A DNA stretch of 64,000 nucleotides, taken from the NCBI GenBank assembly GCA_045807565.1, contig JBJMHD010000146.1, forward strand, positions 3,085-67,084, written 5' to 3'. The translations under genes were made by a program, and so were the position numbers. The notes beneath the pieces are model-generated. The model made no database searches, was not told where the DNA came from, and was given only the letters and a program-made list of their open reading frames with translations. Positions 2,167-55,968 of the stretch are shown here, one piece after another (positions within the stretch are counted from its first letter, which is position 1; each line of letters starts with the position of its first letter). The stretch is from Acidimicrobiales bacterium (GTDB lineage Bacteria > Actinomycetota > Acidimicrobiia > Acidimicrobiales > VFJN01).

Positions 2167-2930
2167 GCGCAGCGAGCGTGAGCGGACGCAGCGCCATCGT
2201 CACCGGCGGCGCGTCGGGCATCGGCCTCGCCATCAGCCAGCGGCTGGCCAGCGACGGCATCCCCGTCGGCGTGCTCGACCTGCACGGGGACGCCGCCGAG
2301 GAGGCCGCCGCCAAGATCAACGCGGCCGGTGGCACCGCGATGGCGCTCCCCGCTGACGTCACCGATCGCCCGAGCATCGACGCCGCCGTCGCCGCCCTCA
2401 CCGAGGCCCACGGTGCGCCCACGATCCTCGTGAACAACGCCGGGCTCGATGGCTTCTCCCGCTTCCTCGACATCACCCTCGAGCAGTGGAACCGCATCTT
2501 CGAGGTGAACCTCACCGGCACGTTCCACTGCTGCCAGGCGGTTGTGCCCGCGATGCTCGAGGCGGGCTGGGGGCGCATCGTGAACATCTCGTCGTCGAGC
2601 GCGCAGGGCGGTCAGCAGATGATGACCCACTACGCCTCGTCGAAGGCCGGCATGATCGGCTTCACCAAGTCGCTCGCCCTCGAGCTCGGTCCGAAGGGGA
2701 TCACGGTCAACACGATCCCGCCCGGGTTCATCGACACGCCCATGCTGCGGAAGGCGGAGGCGAAGGGGCTGCTCGGCAAGGGCGTGGAGTTCAACGAGGG
2801 CACGACCCCCGTGCGCCGCATCGGACGGCCCGAGGACATCGCCGCCACCTGCTCCTTCCTCGTGCGCGACGAGGCGAGCTACATCACCGGTCAGGTGATC
2901 GGCGTCAACGGCGGCCGGAACACCGGGTGA
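2163..2930 (+). CDS. SDR-family oxidoreductase (FabG-like)
   Basis: The GTG start overlaps the upstream TGA (GTGA). It has the TGGASGIG cofactor motif, NNAG and a catalytic YASSK. The long upstream extension in the ORF track is Arg/Pro-rich and not coding-like. Confidence 0.85.
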   Translation: MSAASVSGRSAIVTGGASGIGLAISQRLASDGIPVGVLDLHGDAAEEAAAKINAAGGTAMALPADVTDRPSIDAAVAALTEAHGAPTILVNNAGLDGFSRFLDITLEQWNRIFEVNLTGTFHCCQAVVPAMLEAGWGRIVNISSSSAQGGQQMMTHYASSKAGMIGFTKSLALELGPKGITVNTIPPGFIDTPMLRKAEAKGLLGKGVEFNEGTTPVRRIGRPEDIAATCSFLVRDEASYITGQVIGVNGGRNTG

Positions 2931-3520
2931 GCCCGCCGCGCATCCCGCCGTTGCCTCCTGCCGAGTGGCCCGAGGCCATGCAGGGCGCGCTCGCTGCGCT
3001 CCAGCCGCCGAACCCGCGCCACCCCCGTCCACCGCGCGATCCCGACCGTCCCAAGGGGCTCAACGTCCTCGGCACCCTCGCCCACCACCCCGACCTCACC
3101 ACCGCGTTCCACACGCTCACGGGGCACGTGCTCTTCGCATCCACGATCACGCCACGGCAGCGCGAGCTGCTCGTGCTGCGCGTCGCCCACCTGCGGCAGG
3201 CCGACTACGAGTGGACCCAGCACGTGCTGCTGGCCTCGGACGCCGGCATCACCGCCGAGGAGGTCGGCCGTGTCGCCGAGGGGCCCGACGCGGCCGGGTG
3301 GGCACCGCTCGAGGCGGCGCTCGTCCGGGCCGTCGACGAGCTCGTCGCCGACGCCCACGTCGCCGAGGCCACCTGGTCGGTGCTGGCCCAGCACCTGGAC
3401 ACCCACCAGCTCATGGACGTCGTGTTCACGGTCGGCACCTACGAGGTGCTCGCCATGGCGCTGCGCACCTTCGGGGTGGAGCTGGACGCCGACCTTGTCC
3501 GGAAACCGGCTTCTCCGTAG
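2927..3520 (+). CDS. carboxymuconolactone decarboxylase (AhpD-like) family protein
   Basis: The GTG start overlaps the upstream stop (GTGA). The helical CMD-like core runs RQRELLVLRVAHLRQADYEWTQH ... FTVGTYEVLAMAL. No CxxC motif is present. Confidence 0.65.
   Translation: MSPPRIPPLPPAEWPEAMQGALAALQPPNPRHPRPPRDPDRPKGLNVLGTLAHHPDLTTAFHTLTGHVLFASTITPRQRELLVLRVAHLRQADYEWTQHVLLASDAGITAEEVGRVAEGPDAAGWAPLEAALVRAVDELVADAHVAEATWSVLAQHLDTHQLMDVVFTVGTYEVLAMALRTFGVELDADLVRKPASP
3501..3515 (-). promoter_or_regulatory. GAGAA-N5-TTTCC box (GAGAAGCCGGTTTCC)
   Basis: It lies at the 3' end of the CMD gene, 55 nt upstream of the Rieske-1 ATG. An extended -10-like TGCTATCCT follows at 3531..3539. Confidence 0.3.
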
Positions 3521-3569: not shown

Positions 3570-4862
3570 ATGGCGCACTTCACCAAGCCCGAGGCGGGCA
3601 GCTGGACCGAGCAGTACCCCGACCTCGGCACCGGTCCCGTGTCCTACGAGGACTCCATCTCCCCCGCCTACTACGAGGTGGAGCGCGAGGCGATCTTCAA
3701 GCACTCCTGGCTGAACGTCGGCCGGGTGGAGCAGCTCCCTCGCAAGGGCGCCTACTTCACCAAGGAGATCGACGCCGCCCGCACGTCGGTGATCGTGGTG
3801 CGCGGCACCGACGGCGAGGTGCGCGCCTTCCACAACATCTGCCGCCACCGCGGCAACAAGCTGGTGTGGAACGACTACCCGGGCGAGGAGGTCGACGGCA
3901 CCTGCCGCCAGTTCACCTGCAAGTACCACGGGTGGCGCTACGACCTGGAGGGCGCCCTCACCTTCGTGCAGCAGGAGTCGGAGTTCTTCGACCTCGACAA
4001 GGCCGACTACGGGCTGGTGGCCGTGCAGTGCGAGGTGTGGGAGGGCTTCATCTTCGTCAACCTCGACCCGGACAACACCGAGTCGGCGGCGTCGTACCTC
4101 GGCGACCTGGGCGCCGGCCTCGCGGGGTACCCGTTCGACGAGATGACGGCGGTCTACAAGTACCGCGCCGACGTCGGGAGCAACTGGAAGCTCTTCATCG
4201 ACGCCTTCGCCGAGTTCTACCACGCACCTGTCCTGCACGCGAAGCAAGCCGTGGCCGACGAGTCGCACAAGCTCCAGGGGTACGGCTACGAGGCGCTCGC
4301 CTACGGCATCGACGGTCCCCACAGCATGGTGTCGTCGTGGGGCGGCATGTCCCCGCCCAAGGACCTCGGCATGGTGAAGCCCATCGAGCGGGTGCTGCGG
4401 AGCGGCCTGTTCGGCCCGTGGGACAAGCCCGACATCGGCATCGACGAGCTGCCACCCGGTCTCAACCCCGCGCGCCACAAGGCGTGGGGCACCGACTCGT
4501 TCGTGTTCTTCCCGAACTTCATGGTGCTCGTGTGGGAGCCGGGCTGGTACCTCACGTACCACTACTGGCCGACCGCCTACAACCGCCACACCTTCGAGGG
4601 GACGCTCTACTTCGTGCCGCCGAAGAACGCGACCGAGCGCCTGCGCCAGGAGCTCGCCGCGGTGACGTTCAAGGAGTACGCGCTGCAGGACGGCAACACG
4701 CTGGAGGCCACCCAGCGCAGCATCGAGTCGCGCGCCGTCACGGCCTTCCCCCTCAACGACCAGGAGATCCTCCTGCGCCACCTGCACAAGACGGCGCGGG
4801 ACAAGGTCGCCGCGTTCCAGCAGCGGAACGAGACCTCCGTCCAGATCTCCGCGGCATCCTGA
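3570..4862 (+). CDS. Rieske [2Fe-2S] non-heme iron oxygenase, alpha subunit (copy 1)
   Basis: The Rieske motif is CRHRG...CKYHGW, with a mononuclear iron region EFYHAPVLH. It is a clear paralog of 53487..54758. Confidence 0.85.
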   Translation: MAHFTKPEAGSWTEQYPDLGTGPVSYEDSISPAYYEVEREAIFKHSWLNVGRVEQLPRKGAYFTKEIDAARTSVIVVRGTDGEVRAFHNICRHRGNKLVWNDYPGEEVDGTCRQFTCKYHGWRYDLEGALTFVQQESEFFDLDKADYGLVAVQCEVWEGFIFVNLDPDNTESAASYLGDLGAGLAGYPFDEMTAVYKYRADVGSNWKLFIDAFAEFYHAPVLHAKQAVADESHKLQGYGYEALAYGIDGPHSMVSSWGGMSPPKDLGMVKPIERVLRSGLFGPWDKPDIGIDELPPGLNPARHKAWGTDSFVFFPNFMVLVWEPGWYLTYHYWPTAYNRHTFEGTLYFVPPKNATERLRQELAAVTFKEYALQDGNTLEATQRSIESRAVTAFPLNDQEILLRHLHKTARDKVAAFQQRNETSVQISAAS

Positions 4863-4873
4863 GGAGTCCCACC

Positions 4874-5200
4874 ATGGCCACCCTTCCCCCGGACTTCGCC
4901 GATCTCGAGCCGTTCGTCGACTGGTCGCTCGAGACGGAGGCCGAGCGCTACGCCAAGCGGCTCGCCAGCACCATGGACGAGCTGCAGGCGTTCTACGACG
5001 CGGCCTTCCCGCGCCTCGAAGACGCGATGGCCCACCTCGACGCCCTCGACCTCGGCGCGCTGCCCGAGGACGCCACCCGTCTGCTGTGGCTCTGCTACTC
5101 GCTCGTCAACGCATCGTTCCCCGTCGAGGTGTGGCGGCAGCCCCGTGTGCCCGACAGCGGCGCCGCGAGCATGGACCTGGTGGTGGAGCCGGCGGTCTGA
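4874..5200 (+). CDS. small helical protein of unknown function, partner of Rieske oxygenase (copy 1)
   Basis: The ATG lies 12 nt after the Rieske stop. The ORF is 108 aa with G/C-rich third positions. About 60 of ~110 hand-aligned residues are identical to 53158..53490, which sits in the same position behind the paralogous Rieske gene. Confidence 0.6.
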   Translation: MATLPPDFADLEPFVDWSLETEAERYAKRLASTMDELQAFYDAAFPRLEDAMAHLDALDLGALPEDATRLLWLCYSLVNASFPVEVWRQPRVPDSGAASMDLVVEPAV

Positions 5201-5264: not shown

Positions 5265-5963
5265 ATGACCTCCCAGGAGCCGGCGGACGGCACGACCGAA
5301 GCCGGCACCACCTGGCGAGATCTGGCCGTCGCCCGGTCCCTCGACCCGGCGCGGGCCCGAGCCGAGAAGCGCGTGCAGCGCTTCCTCGACGCCGCCGTCG
5401 AGCTGATGAGCAGCTCGGAGAACAAGGACTTCACCGTGCAGCAGGTGGTGGAGCGCTCGGGGCAGTCGCTCCGCAGCTTCTACCAGTACTTCGCCGGCAA
5501 GTACGAGCTCCTGCTCGCGCTGTTCGAGGAGTCGGTCCGATCCACCGCCGAGCACCTCGCCGACACGGTGGAGCCCATCGAGGATCCCCTGGACAAGCTC
5601 CAAGCCTTCCTCGTGGAGTACTACCGCATCTGCACGCCCACGCCGAAGGGCAAGCCCGGTCCCAAGCGAGCGGGGCCGAACCCCGCCGCCATCGCCGAGT
5701 TCGCGCAGCAGCTCCTCACCGAGCACCCCCGGGAGGCGGCCGAGGCCTTCACGCCCCTCGTCAGCCTGCTCGAGGGGATGCTCACCGATGCCGCCACCGC
5801 CGGCGTCCTGCGCTCCGACATCAACCACCGGCGCATCGCGGGGATCCTGCTGCAGGAGATCATGTTCAACGCGTTCGCGTCCACGATCAGCGGCACGTCC
5901 GTGCGCGAGGGCGGCGCCGACGACCTGTGGGACCTCGTGCTGCACGGCATCGCCGCCCGCTGA
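5265..5963 (+). CDS. TetR-family transcriptional regulator
   Basis: The N-terminal HTH is FTVQQVVERSGQSLRSFYQYFAGKYELLLALF. A perfect palindrome lies 31 nt upstream. Confidence 0.85.
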   Translation: MTSQEPADGTTEAGTTWRDLAVARSLDPARARAEKRVQRFLDAAVELMSSSENKDFTVQQVVERSGQSLRSFYQYFAGKYELLLALFEESVRSTAEHLADTVEPIEDPLDKLQAFLVEYYRICTPTPKGKPGPKRAGPNPAAIAEFAQQLLTEHPREAAEAFTPLVSLLEGMLTDAATAGVLRSDINHRRIAGILLQEIMFNAFASTISGTSVREGGADDLWDLVLHGIAAR

Positions 5964-9655: not shown

Positions 9656-10050
9656 CCCTCCGACACGAACTCGGCGGTGCGGTGGTGGAACCGCCACGCA
9701 CCGCCGTCCTCGTGCAAGACGTCCCGGTACCGGCCGACGAGCTGCACCTGCCAGCTCCCGTCGATCCGCAGCAGGAGCACGACGTCGCTGACGGCGGTGG
9801 CCTCGCGCTCGTCCCACGCCGTGATGTTGGTGTTGAGCACGAGGTGGCGCTGCGGCATCCGCGGCACCCAACGCCCGTAGGCCGCCCGCAGCCCGGCGTG
9901 ACCCTCGTGGACCCCGAGGTCGCCCATGTCGATGGCACCGTCCTCGCAGAAGGTGGCGACCACGTCGTCGGTGCGGCCGTCGTCCAGCGCATGGGCGTAC
10001 GCCGCCAGCGCGTTGCGGACACCCTCGCTCACGTCGGCGAAGCTGGCCAT
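9652..10050 (-). CDS. NTF2/SnoaL-like protein, possible beta-like partner of the upstream Rieske oxygenase
   Basis: The ATG at 10050 overlaps the TGA of the Rieske gene by 1 nt. The 132-aa ORF has a SnoaL_4-like pattern (ALAAYAHALDDGRTDDVVATF ... GAWRFHHR). Confidence 0.7.
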   Translation of the reverse strand: MASFADVSEGVRNALAAYAHALDDGRTDDVVATFCEDGAIDMGDLGVHEGHAGLRAAYGRWVPRMPQRHLVLNTNITAWDEREATAVSDVVLLLRIDGSWQVQLVGRYRDVLHEDGGAWRFHHRTAEFVSEG

Positions 10051-11417
10051 CAGAGGTCGAGGTCCACGATGGGCCGCTCGAGGGGGTTCACGTTGACCTC
10101 TCGCAGGGCCGGGAGCAGCCGCTCGTACGGCAGCCCGGCGAGGAAGCCGTCGATCACGCGCTCGAGGTTGGCCAGGTGGCCCTCGGCGCGCTCCGAGAAC
10201 CGCATGTACTCGAACCCCTTGGTGTGGAGGCCGCGCTGCTGCTTCGGCAGGTTCGAGAAGTCCTGGGTGGGGATCGGCGGCCAGCGGGGGTCGTCGTGCT
10301 CCCACACCTCCGGCGGGGTGGGCGGCGGCGGCTCGTGTCCCTCGGGGTAGCGGGTGAGCGACCAGATCTCCATCAGCGTCTCCTCCGGTCCCAGCGGCCG
10401 GAAGCGGTACGACGACGCGCTGCTGTACATCGGCAGCACGAACCAGTGCGGGAAGCAGTACCCCATCGGCTCGTTGACGCCCCGAGCCTCGAGGTCGTTC
10501 AGGTCCGGCACGTCATGTCCCTGGGCCCGGTGCCACTCGACCACGGCGTCGTTGAGCGAGCGGTACCAGGTGGCCATCCCCTCCTCGGCGTCGGCCGGGA
10601 GCTCGAGGTCGCGCAGCTCCTCGGCGATGCGGAGGTCGCTGGCGTGGACCATGCCCGCCATGCCGTCGCTCATCGTGCGCAGGTACTGCAGCTCGGCCTC
10701 GACGAACGCGCGGGGATCGAAGGGCGCCCCCTCCTTCGCCGAGTAGCGCATGCCTGGGATCACGAGCTGCGGGTGCGCCTCCACGACGTGGTACTGCTCC
10801 TGGAAGGCCTGCTGCGCGAGCTTCCAGTTCACGGGGAGCCGGCAGGCGTACCACCACTCCGTGCGCAGCGACTCCACCTTCCAGGCGTCGAGGATCGTGG
10901 CCGCCGGCTCGAGGCACTCGCGCAGCGGCGGCGCGCTGTCATCCAGGTTGATCCACGCGCACCCGCCCCAGGTGTCGCAGCGCACGGGCACGAGGTCGAT
11001 GTCACCGGGCTGGAGCTGGTGCTCGCCGAAGGTCCGGCGCTGGGGCACGTGGGTGTTCTCGCCGTCCTGGCCGTAGCACCACCCGTGGAAGGGGCAGGTG
11101 AACCCGCTCTCGCACGTGGCCCGCCCGGTGACGAGCTTCACGCCTCGGTGTCGGCAGGCGTTCTGGAACGCTCGCACCGCCCCGTCGCCGCCCCGCAGCA
11201 CGATCACGGACTGGTCGAGGATCTCGTACTCCACGGCGTCGCCGGGGCTCGGGATCTCCTCCAGGCGGCACGCCATCTGCCACACCCGGGACCACAGCTG
11301 GTCGGCCTCGAGGGCAAAGAACGCAGGATCGACGTAGCGCTCCTTGGCGGCACGGTCCGGCACCTCGATCGCGTGGGGCACCGGCAGGGCCGCCCACTTG
11401 TGATCCACGATCGCCAT
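10050..11417 (-). CDS. Rieske [2Fe-2S] non-heme iron oxygenase, alpha subunit (copy 2, divergent type)
   Basis: The Rieske motif is CRHRG...CPFHGW. The catalytic domain has a QEQYHVVEAH iron motif. Confidence 0.85.
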   Translation of the reverse strand: MAIVDHKWAALPVPHAIEVPDRAAKERYVDPAFFALEADQLWSRVWQMACRLEEIPSPGDAVEYEILDQSVIVLRGGDGAVRAFQNACRHRGVKLVTGRATCESGFTCPFHGWCYGQDGENTHVPQRRTFGEHQLQPGDIDLVPVRCDTWGGCAWINLDDSAPPLRECLEPAATILDAWKVESLRTEWWYACRLPVNWKLAQQAFQEQYHVVEAHPQLVIPGMRYSAKEGAPFDPRAFVEAELQYLRTMSDGMAGMVHASDLRIAEELRDLELPADAEEGMATWYRSLNDAVVEWHRAQGHDVPDLNDLEARGVNEPMGYCFPHWFVLPMYSSASSYRFRPLGPEETLMEIWSLTRYPEGHEPPPPTPPEVWEHDDPRWPPIPTQDFSNLPKQQRGLHTKGFEYMRFSERAEGHLANLERVIDGFLAGLPYERLLPALREVNVNPLERPIVDLDL

Positions 11418-11447: not shown

Positions 11448-11484
11448 GAGAACTATGCTAACCGCTCAGTACAATGACGTTCTC
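11448..11484. promoter_or_regulatory. inverted repeat GAGAAC-N25-GTTCTC in the Rieske-2 / BVMO divergent gap
   Basis: The arms are at 11448..11453 and 11479..11484. The right arm lies in codons 2-4 of the BVMO gene. Confidence 0.3.
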
Positions 11485-13105
11485 GCCCGGTTCCGAGCCG
11501 GTGGACGTGCTGGTCGTCGGCGCCGGCATCACCGGGATCTACCAGCTCTTCCGCGCCCGCGAGGCCGGGTTCTCGGTCGGTCTGCTCGAGGCGGGGGACG
11601 GGGTGGGCGGCACCTGGTTCTGGAACCGCTACCCCGGGGCCCGGTTCGACTCGGAGAGCTACACGTACGGCTACTTCTTCAGCCAGGAGCTCTTCGACGA
11701 GTGGGAGTGGTCGGAGCACTTCGCCGGCCAGCCCGAGGTGGAGCGGTACCTGAACCACGTCGTCGACCGCTTCGACCTGCGGCGCCACATGCGCTTCGGC
11801 GCGCAGGTCGCCTCGGCACGGTTCGACGAGGGCAGCGCCACCTGGGCCGTCACCACCGACGGCGGCGACGTCGTACGCGCCCGCTTCCTCATCTCCTCCA
11901 CCGGCGTGCTCTCGGTGCCGTACGTCCCGGACGTCCCCGGGCAGGACGACTTCCTCGGGGTGCAGCAGCACACCGGGCGGTGGCCGGCCTCCCCCGTCGA
12001 GCTGGCCGGGAAGCGGGTGGCGGTGATCGGCACCTCGTCGAGCGGGGTGCAGGTCGTGGCCGCGATCGTCGACGAGGTCGCCGCGCTCACCGTCTACCAG
12101 CGGTCCGCGAACTGGTGCACGCCCCTGAACAACCGACCCATCACCGCCGAGGAGCAGGCGGCCCTGCGCGCCGACTTCGAGCAGCTGCGCCACACGGTGA
12201 GCACGTCGGTGCACGGCTTCCACCACCCGGTCAACGAGCGCAGCGCCTTCGACGACACCCCGGAGGCGCGCCTCGCGTTCTTCGAGGAAATGTGGGCGAG
12301 CCCGGGGTTCATGAAGTTCACGAGCAACTACGTCGACCTCCTCACCAACCCTGAGGCGAACGCCGAGTGGTGCGAGTTCATCGCCGGCAAGATCCGCGAG
12401 CTCGTGCACGACCCCGACACCGCCGAGCGGCTCATCCCCACCGACCACCGCTACGGCGAGAAGCGACCGCCCTACGTCGCCGGCTACTTCGAGGTGTTCA
12501 ACGAGCCGCACGTCGAGCTGGTCGACCTGCGCGACACCCCGATCGTGCGCCTCACCCCGACGGGGATCGACACGACGGGGGGCACGCGAGAACACGACGT
12601 GATCGTGTGGGCCACCGGGTTCGACTTCGGCACCGGAGCCCTGCGCCGCATGGGCATCCGGGGCCGCGGCGGCCTCGCCCTCGAGGACCACTGGGCCGAC
12701 GGCCCCACCACGTTCCTGGGCGTGCAGACCGCAGGGTTCCCCAACCTCTTCTTCCCCGGCGGCCCGCACGCCGCCGCCGGCAACAACCCCCGGTACAACG
12801 GCGACCAGGTCGACTTCATCACGGACCTCCTCGTCCACGCCCGCGCCCGAGGCTGCGATCTCGTCGAGGTCACATCGGAAGCCGAGGATCGCTGGACGGC
12901 GACGATCGACAAGGCCGCCGCTCGCACCCCGTTCGGCACGATCGGCCAGTACGTGGGCGGGAACATCCCGGGGAAGCCCCGGCGGTACCTGTTGAACGCG
13001 GCCGGCCGTCCGAAGCTGTTCTCGACGATCGCCGAGGTGGTCGACGCCGGCTACGCCGACTTCAGGATGACGTCCCTCGCCGAGCCCGCCGCGCCCCGGA
13101 GCTGA
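11474..13105 (+). CDS. Baeyer-Villiger (type I flavin-containing) monooxygenase
   Basis: It has the FAD motif GAGITG, GGTWFWNRYPG, the BVMO fingerprint FLGVQQHTGRWP and a second Rossmann motif GTSSSG. Confidence 0.85.
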   Translation: MTFSPGSEPVDVLVVGAGITGIYQLFRAREAGFSVGLLEAGDGVGGTWFWNRYPGARFDSESYTYGYFFSQELFDEWEWSEHFAGQPEVERYLNHVVDRFDLRRHMRFGAQVASARFDEGSATWAVTTDGGDVVRARFLISSTGVLSVPYVPDVPGQDDFLGVQQHTGRWPASPVELAGKRVAVIGTSSSGVQVVAAIVDEVAALTVYQRSANWCTPLNNRPITAEEQAALRADFEQLRHTVSTSVHGFHHPVNERSAFDDTPEARLAFFEEMWASPGFMKFTSNYVDLLTNPEANAEWCEFIAGKIRELVHDPDTAERLIPTDHRYGEKRPPYVAGYFEVFNEPHVELVDLRDTPIVRLTPTGIDTTGGTREHDVIVWATGFDFGTGALRRMGIRGRGGLALEDHWADGPTTFLGVQTAGFPNLFFPGGPHAAAGNNPRYNGDQVDFITDLLVHARARGCDLVEVTSEAEDRWTATIDKAAARTPFGTIGQYVGGNIPGKPRRYLLNAAGRPKLFSTIAEVVDAGYADFRMTSLAEPAAPRS

Positions 13106-51081: not shown

Positions 51082-52323
51082 TCAGGCGCGGCGCTTGTGC
51101 ACGACGCCGTCCTTCATCACGAACGGGACGCGCTGGAAGGTGGTGACGTCGGCGAGGGGGTCGCCCGTCACCCCGATGATGTCGGCGAGCATCTCCGGGG
51201 CGATCCGGCCGAGCTCGGGCCGATCGATGAGGTCGGCCGCCACCGTGGTCGCCGCCCGGATCGCCTGGATGGGGGTCATGCCCCGCTGCACGAGGACCTC
51301 GAGCTCCTCGGCGTTGCGGCCGTGCCAGATGGCGGGAGCATCGGTGCCGAGAGCGATCTTCACCCCCGCCTCGATGGCCTTGGCGAGCGACTCCTTGGCC
51401 TTCGGGAAGACCTCGGCCGCCTTGGCCTGGAGCGATCGGGGCTGGTTGGACATGTCCCAGTTCTCGGTGAGCGCGCAGGTCGACACGAGGAACGTGTCGG
51501 TGTCCACGAGCCGCCGGATCGTGTCGTCGGTGATCATCATCCCGTGCTCGATGCAGTCGATGCCGGCGTCCAGAGCGGCGTTGACGGCGGTGTCGCCGTG
51601 GCAGTGCGTGGCGACCCGGAGGCCGCGACGATGCGCCTCGTCCGCGATCGCCGCCAGCTCCTCGGTGGAGTACTGCTGGGCGCCGGGCGGGCCCGTCGGC
51701 GTCATCACGCCGCCTGACGCGCAGCACTTGATCAGCTGCGCGCCGTGGGTGATCTGGTAGCGGACGGCCTTGCGCACCTCGTCGATGCCGTCGGCGATCC
51801 CCTCCTCGACGGTCATCGGCATGATCCCCGGCGCGAGGCCGCTCTGGGCGCTGGGGTCGAGGTGACCGCCCGTGGGGCAGATGGCATGGCCGGCCGGGAT
51901 CACGCGCGGGCCCACGACCCACCCGGCGTCGATGGCCTCGGCGAGGGCGACGTCCACCAGGTAGCCGCCCGTCTTGATGAACAGGCCGAGGTTCCTGACG
52001 GTGGTGAAGCCCGCCCGGAGGGTGCGCTGCCCGTTGGCGACGGCACGGAGCCCCATCTTCACGGGGTCGAGGCGGACCGGGTCCGTGAGGCCGGCGCCGG
52101 GACCCCCGAGCACGAGGTCCACCTCCATGTCCATGAGCCCGGGGACGAGGATCAGGTCGGGCAGGTGGATGACCTCGTCGGCGCCGTCGGAGGCTCCGGG
52201 CTCGTCGGTCACCGCAGTGACCCGGTTCCCCTCGACCACCACGGTGGCGCCGTCGAGGACCTCACCTCGTTCGACGTCGAGGACGCCCTTGGCGCGCAGC
52301 ACGGTGACGGTGGCTTCGGACAT
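51082..52323 (-). CDS. amidohydrolase-superfamily protein with substituted HxH motif
   Basis: K (IKCCASGG), HCH, IEHG and GTDA positions are present. The usual GLxDxHxH strand reads PGLMDMEVD. Confidence 0.7.
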   Translation of the reverse strand: MSEATVTVLRAKGVLDVERGEVLDGATVVVEGNRVTAVTDEPGASDGADEVIHLPDLILVPGLMDMEVDLVLGGPGAGLTDPVRLDPVKMGLRAVANGQRTLRAGFTTVRNLGLFIKTGGYLVDVALAEAIDAGWVVGPRVIPAGHAICPTGGHLDPSAQSGLAPGIMPMTVEEGIADGIDEVRKAVRYQITHGAQLIKCCASGGVMTPTGPPGAQQYSTEELAAIADEAHRRGLRVATHCHGDTAVNAALDAGIDCIEHGMMITDDTIRRLVDTDTFLVSTCALTENWDMSNQPRSLQAKAAEVFPKAKESLAKAIEAGVKIALGTDAPAIWHGRNAEELEVLVQRGMTPIQAIRAATTVAADLIDRPELGRIAPEMLADIIGVTGDPLADVTTFQRVPFVMKDGVVHKRRA

Positions 52324-52346: not shown

Positions 52347-53129
52347 CTAGCGGTCCCCGGCACCCTTGGCCGAGATCTCGTCGAGCTTGATGGGTGGCGG
52401 TCCGGCGGTGGTGCCTCCGTCGACCGGGAGCACGGTGCCGGTGACCTGCGCCGACCGGTCGCTGGCCAGGTACACGGCAGCGTTGGCGACATCGCGCGTG
52501 CTGCCGAGGCGCTGGAGGGGTTGGAGCCGCCGCACGATCGACGCCGTGTCGAAGGAGGCGTTGATGTCGGTGGAGATGTTCCCGGGGGCGATGACGTTCA
52601 CGCGCACCCCGAGCTCAGCCACCTCCACGGCCGCGCAGCGGCTGAAGTGGATCACCGCGGCCTTGGCGGCGCGGTACGAGCTGAACCCGATGCCCGGGCT
52701 GATCCCGCCGATCGAGGTGATGTTGATGATCGACCCACCGTCGCGCATGACGCGCGCGGCGCGCTGCGTGCCCACCATCACGCCGTAGAGGTCCACGGCC
52801 ATCACGCTGTCGAAGTCGCGCAGGTCGTCCTGCATCAGCCGCCGGAACGAGCCGGAGATGCCAGCGTTGTTCACCATCACGTCCACGCCCCCGAAGTGCT
52901 CCTGGGCGTGGTCGATGGCCGCCTGGACGCTGTCGGCGCTCGTGACGTCGGTGTGGTGGAACGTGGCGGCATCGCCCAGCGCCTCCACGACGTCACCGCC
53001 CGCGGGGTCGTCGATGTCGGCGACGACCACCCGGCCGCCCTCCGCCACGAACAGCTCAGCGATGGCCCGCCCGATGCCGTTGGCGGCGCCCGTCACGATC
53101 GCGACCTTGTCGGCCAGCTCGATGCCCAT
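52347..53129 (-). CDS. SDR-family oxidoreductase
   Basis: It has TGAANGIG, NNAG and catalytic YRAAK. Confidence 0.85.
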   Translation of the reverse strand: MGIELADKVAIVTGAANGIGRAIAELFVAEGGRVVVADIDDPAGGDVVEALGDAATFHHTDVTSADSVQAAIDHAQEHFGGVDVMVNNAGISGSFRRLMQDDLRDFDSVMAVDLYGVMVGTQRAARVMRDGGSIINITSIGGISPGIGFSSYRAAKAAVIHFSRCAAVEVAELGVRVNVIAPGNISTDINASFDTASIVRRLQPLQRLGSTRDVANAAVYLASDRSAQVTGTVLPVDGGTTAGPPPIKLDEISAKGAGDR

Positions 53130-53157: not shown

Positions 53158-53490
53158 CTACGGGCGCGGCTCAGCGACGCGATCGATCACTGCCGCACCC
53201 GTGTCGATCGGGAGCGCCTGCTGCCACACCTCGATGGCGTACGACACGAGGGCGAGGGAGTGGAGGAGCTGCAGCAACCTGGTGGCGTCGGCCGGCAGCG
53301 CGTCGAGGGGGAGCTCGTCGCAGTGCTCGATGGCGGCCTCCGCACGGGGGAAGCAGGCGTCGTAGAAGCGCTGCATCTCGTCGAACGGCGTCGCCAGGCG
53401 CTGAGCCCACCGCTCGGGCTCCGTGGCCAGGCACCACGCCTCGGCAAAGGGCTCGAGGTCGGCGAACTCAGAGGGCAGCAGCTGGGTCAC
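53158..53490 (-). CDS. small helical protein of unknown function, partner of Rieske oxygenase (copy 2)
   Basis: The GTG at 53490 overlaps the Rieske stop (GTGA). The ORF is 110 aa and is a paralog of 4874..5200. Confidence 0.6.
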   Translation of the reverse strand: MTQLLPSEFADLEPFAEAWCLATEPERWAQRLATPFDEMQRFYDACFPRAEAAIEHCDELPLDALPADATRLLQLLHSLALVSYAIEVWQQALPIDTGAAVIDRVAEPRP

Positions 53491-54758
53491 CGGACTGCTC
53501 CCGCGGTCGCGGCCTCGTCCCGGTGGTGCTGCACCCAGTCGTTGACGCTCTTGTGGAAGTGGCGGACGAGGATCTCCTGGTCGTTGAGCGGGAAGTCGGC
53601 GAAGGCCCTGGACTCCAACCCGAGCTGCGTGCCGTCGAGGGTGCCGGCGTCCTGGAGGGCGTACTCCTTCACGGTGATCGCGGCGTACTCGCGGGCGAGG
53701 CGTTCGCGTGCCGTCGTCGACGGTGTGAACCAGAGGTCCGCCTCGAAGACGTGGGTGTTGTGGGAGGTCGGCCAGAACCGGTAGGTCAGGTACCAGCCCC
53801 GCTCGTAGACGAGGATCTCCAGGTTCGGGAACACCTGGAAGTTGTCGATCCCCCAGCTCTCCACGCCGCCGGGGTTCACTCCCGCACGAGCCTCGTCGAG
53901 GTCCGCCGCGTCCCACGGGCCCATGTTCCCGCTGCGGAAGAGCGCCTCGCTCGGGTAGAGGTGCTCGCGGGGGAAGCGGTGCTTGTGCGAGCCGCTCGTG
54001 CTCACCACGCGGTGCGGGCCGTCGAGCTGGTAGTGCGCTGCCTCGAACTCGGCCTCCGGGTTTCGGTAGCTCGGTCCGAGCTGGTGCGTGTGCAGCGGGG
54101 GCACGTGGTAGTACTCCTGGAAGGCGTCGATGAACACCTTCCAGTTGCTGCGGTTGGCCGCCCGGAAGGAGTACCGCTCCGTCATCTGGTCGAAGGGGTA
54201 CGCCTCCAGGGCGCCGACCATGGGTCCCAGGTACTCGCGCAGCGTCTGGCTCGGACGGTCGGCGAGGTTCACGAAGATGAAGCCGGCCCACACCTCGCAG
54301 TGCACACCCGCCAGCCCCAGCGTCTCCTTCTCGATGTCGAAGAACTCGCGCTCCTGGTGGACGTAGGTGCACGCGCCGTCCAGGCCGTAGCGCCAACCGT
54401 GGTACTTGCAGACGAGCTGGCGTCCGGAGCCAGCGACGTCGTCCCGCGGCGACCCGATCCACACGAGCTTGTTGCCCCGATGGCGGCACACGTTGTGGAA
54501 GGCGCGCACCTCGTCATCCATGCCGCGGGTCACGAGCAGGGAGGTGCGAGCGGCGTGCAGGTCCTTGGTGAAGAAGGTCCCCTTGCGCGGCAGGTCATCG
54601 ATGCGTCCCACGTTCAGCCACGCCTGCCGGAAGATCGCGTCCCGTTCGAGCTCGTAGAAGGCGGGTGACACGGAGTCCTCGAAGGCCACGAAGCCGGTGC
54701 CCAGCTCAGGGTGGTGCTGGGTCCAGGTGCCCTCGGCCGGCCGGGGGAAGCCGGTCAT
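53487..54758 (-). CDS. Rieske [2Fe-2S] non-heme iron oxygenase, alpha subunit (copy 3, paralog of copy 1)
   Basis: The ATG is at 54758. The Rieske motif is CRHRG...CKYHGW, with an iron motif EYYHVPPLH. It is collinear with 3570..4862 along its whole length. Confidence 0.85.
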   Translation of the reverse strand: MTGFPRPAEGTWTQHHPELGTGFVAFEDSVSPAFYELERDAIFRQAWLNVGRIDDLPRKGTFFTKDLHAARTSLLVTRGMDDEVRAFHNVCRHRGNKLVWIGSPRDDVAGSGRQLVCKYHGWRYGLDGACTYVHQEREFFDIEKETLGLAGVHCEVWAGFIFVNLADRPSQTLREYLGPMVGALEAYPFDQMTERYSFRAANRSNWKVFIDAFQEYYHVPPLHTHQLGPSYRNPEAEFEAAHYQLDGPHRVVSTSGSHKHRFPREHLYPSEALFRSGNMGPWDAADLDEARAGVNPGGVESWGIDNFQVFPNLEILVYERGWYLTYRFWPTSHNTHVFEADLWFTPSTTARERLAREYAAITVKEYALQDAGTLDGTQLGLESRAFADFPLNDQEILVRHFHKSVNDWVQHHRDEAATAGAVR

Positions 54759-54900: not shown

Positions 54901-55968
54901 ATGGACGCGATCACGCTGCTGAAGAACGACCACAAGACCGTCGAAGCGCTCTTCAAGCGCTTCGAGCGCGCCGGCGACGGCGCCCACGCCGAGAAGCGTG
55001 AGGTCGTCGACAAGATCATCGAGGAGCTGGCGATCCACGCCGCCGTCGAGGAGCAGCTCTTCTACCCCGTGACGCGTGCCACCGTGCCCGAGACCGAGGA
55101 CATCGCCCTGGAGAGCCTCGAGGAGCACCACATCGTGAAGTGGGTGCTCTCGGAGCTCGACGGGATGGACCCGAGCGACGAGCGCTTCGACGCCAAGGTC
55201 ACCGTGCTCATGGAGAACGTTCGCCACCACGTGGAGGAGGAGGAGGACGACTACTTCCCCAAGGTCCGGGACGAGCTCGGCCGCAACGCCCTCAACGACC
55301 TCGGCGACGCCATGGAAGCCGCCAAGCGCGTGGCTCCGACCCATCCGCACCCGCGCTCGCCGGACGCGCCTCCGGGGAACCTCGTCGTCGGCACCGCCGC
55401 CGGGGTCGTCGATCGCGTGGGCGACACGATGGCGGGGGCCGCCCAAGGTGGCGCCTACGCCATCGGCGACCTGATCGCCACGGTCCTCCGCCGGAAGAAG
55501 CCCACGTCCTCGCCGCGGGGCAGCTCGACGGCACGGTCGACCGCCACCAAGGTGCGCGACAAGGCCGCCCAAGCGACCGACGCGCTGATCGAGGCTGCCA
55601 CCGACGCCAAGGAGTCGACGACGGCGCGCACCACCAAGGCACGTCGGGCGGGCAAGACCACGGCGCGATCGGCGTCGCGTGGCGCCACGAAGACGGCGAA
55701 GGCCGCCCGGTCAGGCGCCAAGGCCACCGCCACGTCGGCGCGGAAGGGTGCGAAGCGCGTGGCCACCACCGCGAAGCGCTCCGCGAGCGGTGCCCGCAAG
55801 GGCACGACCTCCGCACGGTCCGCCAGCAAGGCGACGGCGACGTCGACGCGGAAGGCGGCAAAGCGCACGCGCAGCACCGCCAAGCGCGCTGCCACCAGCA
55901 CCGGCCGCACCGCACGCAAGGCGACCCGCTCGGCGAAGTCCACCGCCAAGCGGGCGACGAGCCGGTGA
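54901..55968 (+). CDS. hemerythrin (HHE cation-binding) domain protein with long basic low-complexity tail
   Basis: It has NDHKTVEALF, HAAVEEQLFYP, EEHHIVKW and VRHHVEEEEDDYFP His/Glu ligand blocks. The last ~155 aa are almost only K/R/A/T/S/G. Confidence 0.75.
   Translation: MDAITLLKNDHKTVEALFKRFERAGDGAHAEKREVVDKIIEELAIHAAVEEQLFYPVTRATVPETEDIALESLEEHHIVKWVLSELDGMDPSDERFDAKVTVLMENVRHHVEEEEDDYFPKVRDELGRNALNDLGDAMEAAKRVAPTHPHPRSPDAPPGNLVVGTAAGVVDRVGDTMAGAAQGGAYAIGDLIATVLRRKKPTSSPRGSSTARSTATKVRDKAAQATDALIEAATDAKESTTARTTKARRAGKTTARSASRGATKTAKAARSGAKATATSARKGAKRVATTAKRSASGARKGTTSARSASKATATSTRKAAKRTRSTAKRAATSTGRTARKATRSAKSTAKRATSR
55498..55965 (+). repeat. coding low-complexity region: degenerate (S/T)A(K/R)(K/R)xA-type basic repeats
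   Basis: The translation reads ...TARSASRGATKTAKAARSGAKATATSARKGAKRVATTAKRSASGARKG...STAKRATSR. The other frames on both strands also stay open here (55140..56093 +, 55679..56176 +, 55292..56377 -, 55455..56144 -, 55711..56097 -). Confidence 0.6.

Follow-up and report, generated by a model that had tools for sequence, protein, structure and literature searches.

The stretch of DNA analyzed here, 64,000 nucleotides (nt) of contig JBJMHD010000146.1 from a bacterium of the order Acidimicrobiales (hereafter the window; G+C content, 71%), carries two copies of a two-gene unit in which the gene for a Rieske oxygenase alpha subunit is followed directly by a gene for a small acidic protein predicted to be helical. 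In the first copy, encoded on the forward strand, alpha1 (positions 3570-4862; 430 amino acids, aa) precedes S1 (4874-5200; 108 aa, isoelectric point (pI) 4.06, ATG start). The second lies on the reverse strand and comprises alpha2 (53487-54758; 423 aa) and S2 (53158-53490; 110 aa, pI 4.25, GTG start). Both large proteins combine a Rieske domain (Pfam Rieske, E-values of 7.7e-16 for alpha1 and 2.5e-14 for alpha2) with a Ring_hydroxyl_A catalytic domain (6.4e-36 and 9.2e-40, respectively), the combination that identifies alpha subunits of Rieske non-heme iron oxygenases. The TGA stop codon of alpha1 and the ATG of S1 are separated by 11 nt, with a Shine-Dalgarno-like sequence, GAGGAG, at 4861-4866 ahead of the S1 start, and the GTG start codon of S2 overlaps the TGA stop codon of alpha2 (GTGA). 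The two alpha subunits are collinear and share 54% identity over 413 residues, and S1 and S2 are identical at 60 of 104 aligned residues (58%; E = 9e-34). The G+C content at the three codon positions (0.73/0.45/0.94 for S1 and 0.74/0.46/0.93 for S2) resembles that of neighboring genes, and the small proteins are exactly identical to the database entries ACJ739_14905 and ACJ739_15130, respectively, both named "MAG: hypothetical protein." A preliminary description of the sequence had noted these open reading frames (ORFs), the second unit on the opposite strand, the collinear alpha subunits, about 60 shared residues and several hand-read motifs in the small proteins, and coding-like G or C in third codon positions; all of this holds, except that the gap between alpha1 and S1 had been given as 12 nt.

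A large and conserved family of small proteins

S1 has homologues in 5,852 clusters at 90% identity, and S2, which represents a subtype of its own, in 845. A profile of distant members of the family matched 2,178 clusters, and a profile search of a 50%-identity library returned 1,228 representatives at E <= 0.001. The homologues, nearly all of them 100-130 aa long, extend down to ~35% identity and occur in several phyla; wherever the source gives a name, it is "hypothetical protein." The family is acidic (median pI 4.5), and the ratio of nonsynonymous to synonymous substitution rates (dN/dS) is ~0.17 in 43 ungapped orthologue comparisons. Residues P5, W17, R25, R29, and L70 are invariant, and L4, F8, D10, L11, E12, L19, E22, F40, Y41, R47, L60, P64, S76, L77, and E85 nearly so, the conserved positions being occupied by hydrophobic residues plus D10, E12, E22, R25, R29, R47, and E85. 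No column of conserved Cys or His was found across 115 diverse members.

The small protein is conserved to the same extent as the catalytic subunit: in 67 orthologous loci, identity to the protein of the window has a median of 78.7% for the small protein and 78.9% for alpha, the corresponding values for the products of neighboring genes being 73% (TauD), 73% (SDR), 63% (CMD), 60% (amidohydrolase), and 56% (TetR). Because a 108-residue helical protein is conserved like alpha along its whole length, a large part of its surface may well be in contact with something, which would be the easiest explanation for this pattern. The small gene is real and under purifying selection.

Linkage to one clade of Rieske oxygenases

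A pattern scan of one genome per species yielded 464 loci, 80 of which were fetched; these derive mostly from Acidimicrobiia, plus a cultured Spirillospora, and represent mainly close relatives of the window loci. In 78 of them, the small gene is preceded on the same strand, at a distance of less than 400 nt, by the sequence for the C-terminus of an alpha subunit (78 of 79 assessable loci, one being cut by a contig end). The spacer between the two genes is mostly 11-18 nt in Acidimicrobiia. Six loci (L031, L042, L062, L070, L074, and, among the distant contexts described below, L100) have alpha genes split into at least two frames, probably owing to sequencing or assembly frameshifts. Alpha subunits of the A1 type always sit with small proteins of the S1 type. 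Furthermore, two alpha-small pairs are found in tandem, within a few kilobases, in L098 (2059-5336) and L041 (4702-9667), and in L098, genes for a PDR-type reductase and an AMP-ligase lie just upstream of the tandem pairs. Given these tandem pairs and the modular behavior of the unit elsewhere, the two loci of the window look like a dispersed duplicated two-gene module; they probably represent a tandem alpha-small-alpha-small arrangement whose halves, after the duplication, became separated by 48 kb.

The linkage extends to distant members of the family. We analyzed 20 distinct contexts with small proteins of 35-47% identity, spanning Actinomycetota, Alpha-, Beta-, and Gammaproteobacteria as well as unassigned metagenome contigs and including the genera Rhodococcus, Sphingomonas, Sphingobium, Novosphingobium, Paroceanicella, Acinetobacter, Variovorax, and Cupriavidus. 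Of these contexts, 17 have the small gene immediately beside one for a Rieske alpha subunit of ~395-440 aa (L082, L083, L087-L093, and L095-L102; the gene order is reversed in L091 and the alpha gene is split by a frameshift in L100), and in two more (L081 and L094), a single Amidohydro_2 gene lies between the two. Stop and start codons overlap by 1 or 4 nt in L083, L089, L090, L092, L096, L100, L101, and L102, as they do for S2. Other neighbors vary and include genes for SDR proteins, amidohydrolases, CoA-transferases, a StyA-type monooxygenase, NTF2-like proteins, and TetR regulators, so that alpha, present in 19 of the 20 contexts, is the only constant neighbor. Collectively, these results show that the small gene is tightly and widely linked to this clade of alpha subunits. 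From the two copies in the window, the preliminary description had argued that the small protein is a functional partner of alpha; conservation next to orthologous Rieske genes and retention of the linkage are borne out by both surveys, and the physical interaction and the type of role are what we infer further below.

Electron-transfer partners of ordinary kinds accompany the pair in relatives of the window loci, either PDR/VanB-type reductases (L088, L089, L091, and L098) or Rieske-type ferredoxins with or without a separate reductase (a ferredoxin in L099 and L102, and a ferredoxin together with a reductase in L087). Most reductases encoded near the pair are of the PDR/VanB type. Because such electron-transfer partners coexist with the small gene, the small protein does not replace them.

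Some of the distant contexts have features of their own. On plasmid pRSMS1 of Sphingobium sp. RSMS (L101, 2224-3833), only the pair lies between copies of an IS21-family element (ISRsp3), which makes it look like a mobilized two-gene unit. In several proteobacterial loci, a gene for an NTF2/SnoaL-like protein follows the pair, usually directly, namely in L087 (7354-7845), L099 (3862-4368), L102 (4550-5065, where two cupin genes intervene), L088 (7442-7885), and L093 (5510-5809); its product may be a cofactor-independent oxygenase resembling IifA or else a beta-like subunit that has diverged. The Acinetobacter plasmid cluster L087 corresponds, by gene order only, to a chromosomal cluster of Acinetobacter piscicola p38, in which gene1684 (ring-hydroxylating alpha subunit), gene1687 (styrene monooxygenase), and gene1690 (ferredoxin) are reported in a transcriptome study to be induced by indole or skatole (PMC11434297). 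In L087, the gene following alpha encodes a member of the small-protein family, and the shared order suggests that gene1685 of p38 is a homologue as well.

Twelve proteins longer than typical for the family (including P0121, P0130, P0161, and P0167) were inspected as potential gene fusions; since they look like frameshifted read-throughs of adjacent genes, they were rejected as Rosetta-stone evidence. These read-throughs do confirm the position of alpha upstream and of an amidohydrolase gene downstream of the small gene.

Predicted fold and search for known relatives

The AlphaFold2 models of S1 (predicted local distance difference test (pLDDT) 94.2, predicted template modeling score (pTM) 0.84) and S2 (pLDDT 91.2, pTM 0.80) both consist of four helices, placed at residues 6-17, 22-31, 34-56, and 65-87 in S1 and 7-19, 24-33, 36-58, and 67-89 in S2, followed by a conserved, extended C-terminal tail modeled with lower confidence (pLDDT 68-84). 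Neither protein produced a match in Pfam-A (2025) or NCBIfam 20.0, even at E <= 1, and searches of the 115 diverse members against Pfam, which includes Ring_hydroxyl_B and other models of the NTF2 clan, and NCBIfam returned scattered noise only. Sequence-profile searches of the PDB with the small protein gave no match. Foldseek searches with the two confident models revealed no significant similarity either: the best E-values were 5.2 and 0.87 against the PDB and 1.2 against BFVD, and the best TM-scores, obtained on short alignments, did not exceed 0.52 (0.41 when normalized by the query). The predicted fold is thus modeled with confidence but has no solved relative, and as full-text searches of a limited collection of papers also found no described small partner of Rieske oxygenases, the family is apparently undescribed.

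Several identities were considered and set aside. The small protein qualifies neither as a ferredoxin nor as an NTF2-type beta subunit, because it is acidic, all-helical in the models, and devoid of conserved Cys and His: a ferredoxin is ruled out by the 115 members, which have no such conserved residue and match no ferredoxin model, and a beta subunit by the all-helical models, the length of 108-110 aa, and the lack of a Pfam match. Judged by its residues, the small protein is without a metal site. A further candidate was the N-terminal helical domain of NuoE/FdsG. Fifteen of the 115 members weakly matched the NCBIfam model NF004638 (formate dehydrogenase gamma, NuoE-like; best E = 0.0037), with scores of 12-17 bits against a cutoff of 198 bits, and in the three members checked, residues ~24-93 align to model positions 6-72, the helical region before the [2Fe-2S] domain. 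NuoE and FdsG chains are present in the PDB, and neither was among the PDB-profile or Foldseek results; these sub-threshold matches are therefore kept only as a low-weight lead. PicB2 of 6-hydroxypicolinate monooxygenase was considered since L088, L081, and L094 sit among catabolic genes of the pyridine type. It was rejected because the PicB system uses a classical small subunit, with PicB1-4 described as homologues of the classical large and small components, ferredoxin, and reductase (10.1101/530550). The preliminary description had guessed by eye an all-helical protein that is no ferredoxin and no canonical beta subunit and belongs to no recognizable family; the models and the sensitive searches, which placed the small ORF in no unrelated known family, agree with each of these points.

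The type of oxygenase

Alpha1 has the cluster ligands CRH...CKYH with a 23-residue spacer, and the iron-ligand motif NWK...EFYHAPVLH, in which E-F-Y-H-x4-H aligns with the carnitine monooxygenase CntA and with the biphenyl dioxygenase alpha subunit BphA; the carboxylate iron ligand, assigned by eye only, lies in ALQDG. As in CntA, the residue bridging the Rieske cluster and the iron is a Glu. CntA is also the best match of alpha by sequence in the PDB, with biphenyl dioxygenase alpha close behind, and the closest NCBIfam model is GbcA (glycine-betaine monooxygenase), at 125 and 114 bits against a cutoff of 670 bits. CntA works without a beta subunit, and beta-less Rieske monooxygenases are normally alpha3 trimers. 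By these sequence features, the alpha subunits of the window look like those of beta-less Rieske monooxygenases, and since they have the bridging Glu of beta-less CntA, no beta subunit is expected. No NTF2-like gene flanks either locus of the window. The earlier statement that the small protein stands "instead of a beta subunit" overstates the contrast, as alpha subunits of this type are not expected to have one.

In the partnered alpha subunits, the Rieske domain is preceded by an N-terminal (W...YPE)LGT(G/D)P motif, which is absent from three unpartnered ones, a small sample (L083 alpha2, the divergent Rieske gene of L088, and a third alpha-like gene in the window). A 6-residue insertion in the Rieske loop, which gives the 23-residue spacer, is confined to actinobacterial alpha subunits and L087 and so does not track the partner. 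The third alpha-like gene of the window (10050-11417, reverse strand; 455 aa) encodes a protein whose Rieske domain shares ~35% identity with those of alpha1 and alpha2; the gene is accompanied by neither a small partner nor a beta gene and adjoins a gene for a flavin (Baeyer-Villiger-type) monooxygenase-like protein (11474-13105, forward strand).

Gene neighborhood of the two loci

Upstream of alpha1, all on the forward strand, lie genes for an AMP-dependent ligase, cut by the window start (2-1285), and, as identified by Pfam, a TauD/TfdA dioxygenase (1336-2166), an SDR protein (2163-2930), and an AhpD-like CMD protein (2927-3520), the last three being joined via GTGA stop/start overlaps at 2163-2166 and 2927-2930. 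S1 is followed by a gene for a TetR-family regulator (5265-5963, forward strand; Pfam TetR_N). This order recurs in most of the 80 related loci as AMP-ligase-TauD-SDR-CMD-alpha-small-TetR, bracketed in its conserved form by a PDR-type reductase gene upstream and an amidohydrolase gene downstream, each on the opposite strand. The TetR gene after the pair is conserved in Acidimicrobiia, missing from the majority of the proteobacterial loci inspected, and situated upstream of the pair in L092, so that TetR is not a constant partner.

Inside the 64-kb window, no gene for a reductase or ferredoxin was found. In orthologous loci (for example, L001, L009, L012, and L034), the PDR-type reductase gene often lies just upstream of the AMP-ligase gene on the other strand, and since the window starts inside the ligase gene, the redox partner of locus 1 is probably encoded just beyond the left edge of the window.

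At locus 2, genes for an SDR protein (52347-53129) and an amidohydrolase (51082-52323), both identified by Pfam and on the reverse strand, lie downstream of S2, and the order alpha-small-SDR-amidohydrolase recurs in L097 and L098. A gene for a hemerythrin-domain protein with a basic tail of ~200 residues rich in Lys, Ala, Thr, and Arg (54901-55968, forward strand) is divergent from alpha2.

Possible roles of the small protein

The small gene sits directly after the gene for one kind of Rieske oxygenase in many bacteria, and twice in the window; its product therefore most probably serves one clade of these enzymes as an undescribed partner subunit or helper. More specifically, we put at roughly one chance in two (~0.5) that it is a cofactor-less, acidic, four-helix accessory subunit serving as the dedicated partner of a clade of beta-less Rieske alpha subunits, where the binding, the stoichiometry, and the stabilizing role are what we infer. 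The small protein would be made in step with alpha from a shared mRNA and would bind it stably, for example, as an alpha3-small3 complex. Its contribution might lie in folding, in the stability or assembly of the trimer, or in the shape of the surface surrounding the Rieske domain, but would not extend to electron transfer or chemistry, each paralogous alpha subunit keeping its own cognate small protein. A stronger version, which we hold tentatively, is that the small protein could be, for a large and as yet uncharacterized clade of Rieske oxygenases, an obligatory component of novel helical fold that takes the architectural place of the NTF2-type beta subunit in a stable alpha3-small3 enzyme, which would be insoluble or inactive without it.

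Several observations weigh against the accessory subunit. To our knowledge, the beta-less Rieske oxygenases that have been studied (CntA, Stc2, and KshA) work without such a protein, so that a structural need for it is not obvious. No natural fusion of alpha with the small protein was seen among the 150 representatives listed. The 80 close loci, being mostly from Acidimicrobiia, are not independent observations, and one of them (L064) has the small gene without alpha, between an ORF resembling a Zn-dependent alcohol dehydrogenase/quinone oxidoreductase (its translation was read by eye) and an SDR gene. Alpha is also absent from 1 of the 20 distant contexts, on plasmid pSRL1 of Sphingobium indicum B90A (L086, 6282-7330), where the small gene has a 1-nt overlap with a gene for a 228-aa EthD-domain protein downstream of linC, between copies of IS6100; this context recurs on plasmids of sphingomonads that degrade lindane (hexachlorocyclohexane, HCH), with identical-score matches on six other plasmids from four strains. 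Finally, a transient chaperone or an effector would account just as well for the high conservation and the operon coupling.

Acting as such a chaperone, the small protein would assist in maturation or assembly by binding nascent alpha and aiding its folding or trimerization or the insertion of the [2Fe-2S] cluster or the mononuclear iron, and the finished enzyme would no longer contain it. Operon linkage and coupling speak for this role just as they do for an accessory subunit; a small, helical, acidic protein with an extended, conserved tail of lower confidence has the shape typical of protein-binding proteins; and the persistence of the small gene without alpha in L086 and L064 would be in keeping with it. 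Nevertheless, we consider a chaperone somewhat unlikely: no chaperone in the PDB, RbcX included, showed similarity of fold by Foldseek, no conserved metal-binding residues suggest iron delivery, and a private copy for each paralogous alpha, conserved like alpha itself, is more typical of stable subunits, although none of these points is decisive. Quite unlikely, in our estimate, is an effector or coupling protein that docks near the Rieske domain and tunes electron transfer from the reductase or O2 activation, in a role like that of MmoB/DmpM in diiron monooxygenases, or else an adaptor related to the N-terminal helical domain of NuoE/FdsG-type proteins. The strong acidity is shared with many redox-docking proteins, and the NF004638 matches, in consistent register where checked, are the sole hint of an adaptor; yet these matches fall far below the cutoff, NuoE/FdsG chains were not recovered by either PDB search, and effectors of the MmoB type are alpha/beta rather than helical proteins, with no Pfam model matching the small protein.

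The small protein might also have no contact with alpha and act in the pathway or its regulation, for instance, as a ligand-binding protein or anti-repressor acting on TetR, or in handling a common product of the oxygenases. The TetR gene that follows the pair in Acidimicrobiia, the amidohydrolase-type genes that are frequent neighbors, and the EthD-coupled copy without alpha are all compatible with such a role. It is nonetheless very unlikely, since TetR and all other neighbors are dispensable across lineages and alpha is constant, and neither a residue pattern of catalytic type nor a known ligand-binding fold was found. That the small ORF is a product of chance deserves mention in DNA of 71% G+C, as high-GC genomes yield many spurious long ORFs; its probability is negligible, however, being already refuted by conservation in thousands of homologues to ~35% identity across several phyla, and likewise opposed by the low dN/dS, the gene-like G+C content of the codon positions, and the two confident AlphaFold2 models.

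Comparison with known systems

Among the closest known systems are the NTF2-like beta subunits of alpha3beta3 ring-hydroxylating oxygenases (Ring_hydroxyl_B), which are likewise small, non-catalytic, cofactor-less, encoded directly after alpha, co-inherited with it, and presumed to be structural. Those subunits are ~150-190 aa long and adopt an alpha+beta cone fold, whereas the small protein has 108-110 aa, is predicted to be all-helical, and matches no Pfam model. NdmE, the glutathione-S-transferase-like structural subunit of the caffeine N7-demethylase NdmCDE, offers a precedent, in that a Rieske-type oxygenase depends on an unusual partner without redox function to form a soluble, active complex. 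Its partner NdmC, however, is without a Rieske domain of its own, whereas the alpha subunits described here have a complete one, and the small protein has neither a glutathione-S-transferase fold nor any other known fold.

The enzymes CntA/CntB, GbcA/GbcB, and Stc2 resemble the oxygenases of the window in having no beta gene, and PDR/VanB-type reductases are encoded nearby in relatives of the window loci; the bridging Glu in the E-x-Y-H motif is common to CntA and the window alpha subunits. The latter differ in scoring far below the NCBIfam cutoffs (125 versus 670 bits), in carrying the LGT(G/D)P-type N-terminal motif and, in the actinobacterial proteins, the 6-residue insertion in the Rieske loop, and we know of no such small partner in the CntA/CntB, GbcA/GbcB, or Stc2 systems.

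The Rubisco assembly chaperone RbcX and the ~14-kDa activators of nitrile hydratases are small proteins encoded beside a large catalytic subunit and devoted solely to binding it. The small gene similarly adjoins that of a large catalytic subunit, but no similarity in sequence or fold to these proteins was detected. The effectors MmoB and DmpM, cofactor-less proteins of ~100 aa that are encoded in operons of soluble diiron monooxygenases and bind the hydroxylase, are comparable in size, in lacking a cofactor, and in their position within an oxygenase operon; they belong with a different enzyme superfamily, however, and have an alpha/beta fold, whereas the small protein has no Pfam match.

Implications

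Rieske oxygenases play a central part in degrading aromatic and nitrogen-containing compounds and find wide use as biocatalysts. The components accepted for them are an alpha subunit, sometimes a beta subunit, a ferredoxin, and a reductase. The small proteins constitute a real, widespread, and apparently undescribed family tied to one clade of these well-known enzymes, and apparently represent an unrecognized extra oxygenase component. A conserved extra protein tied to a whole clade would extend the parts list of Rieske oxygenases and would assign a function to the thousands of "hypothetical proteins" that make up the family. If the alpha3-small3 arrangement is true, Rieske oxygenases would gain a new quaternary class, and a new protein family would be established. 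On the practical side, the enzymes of this clade may be soluble or active only when the small gene is co-expressed, and the Acinetobacter cluster L087 offers a tractable experimental entry point.

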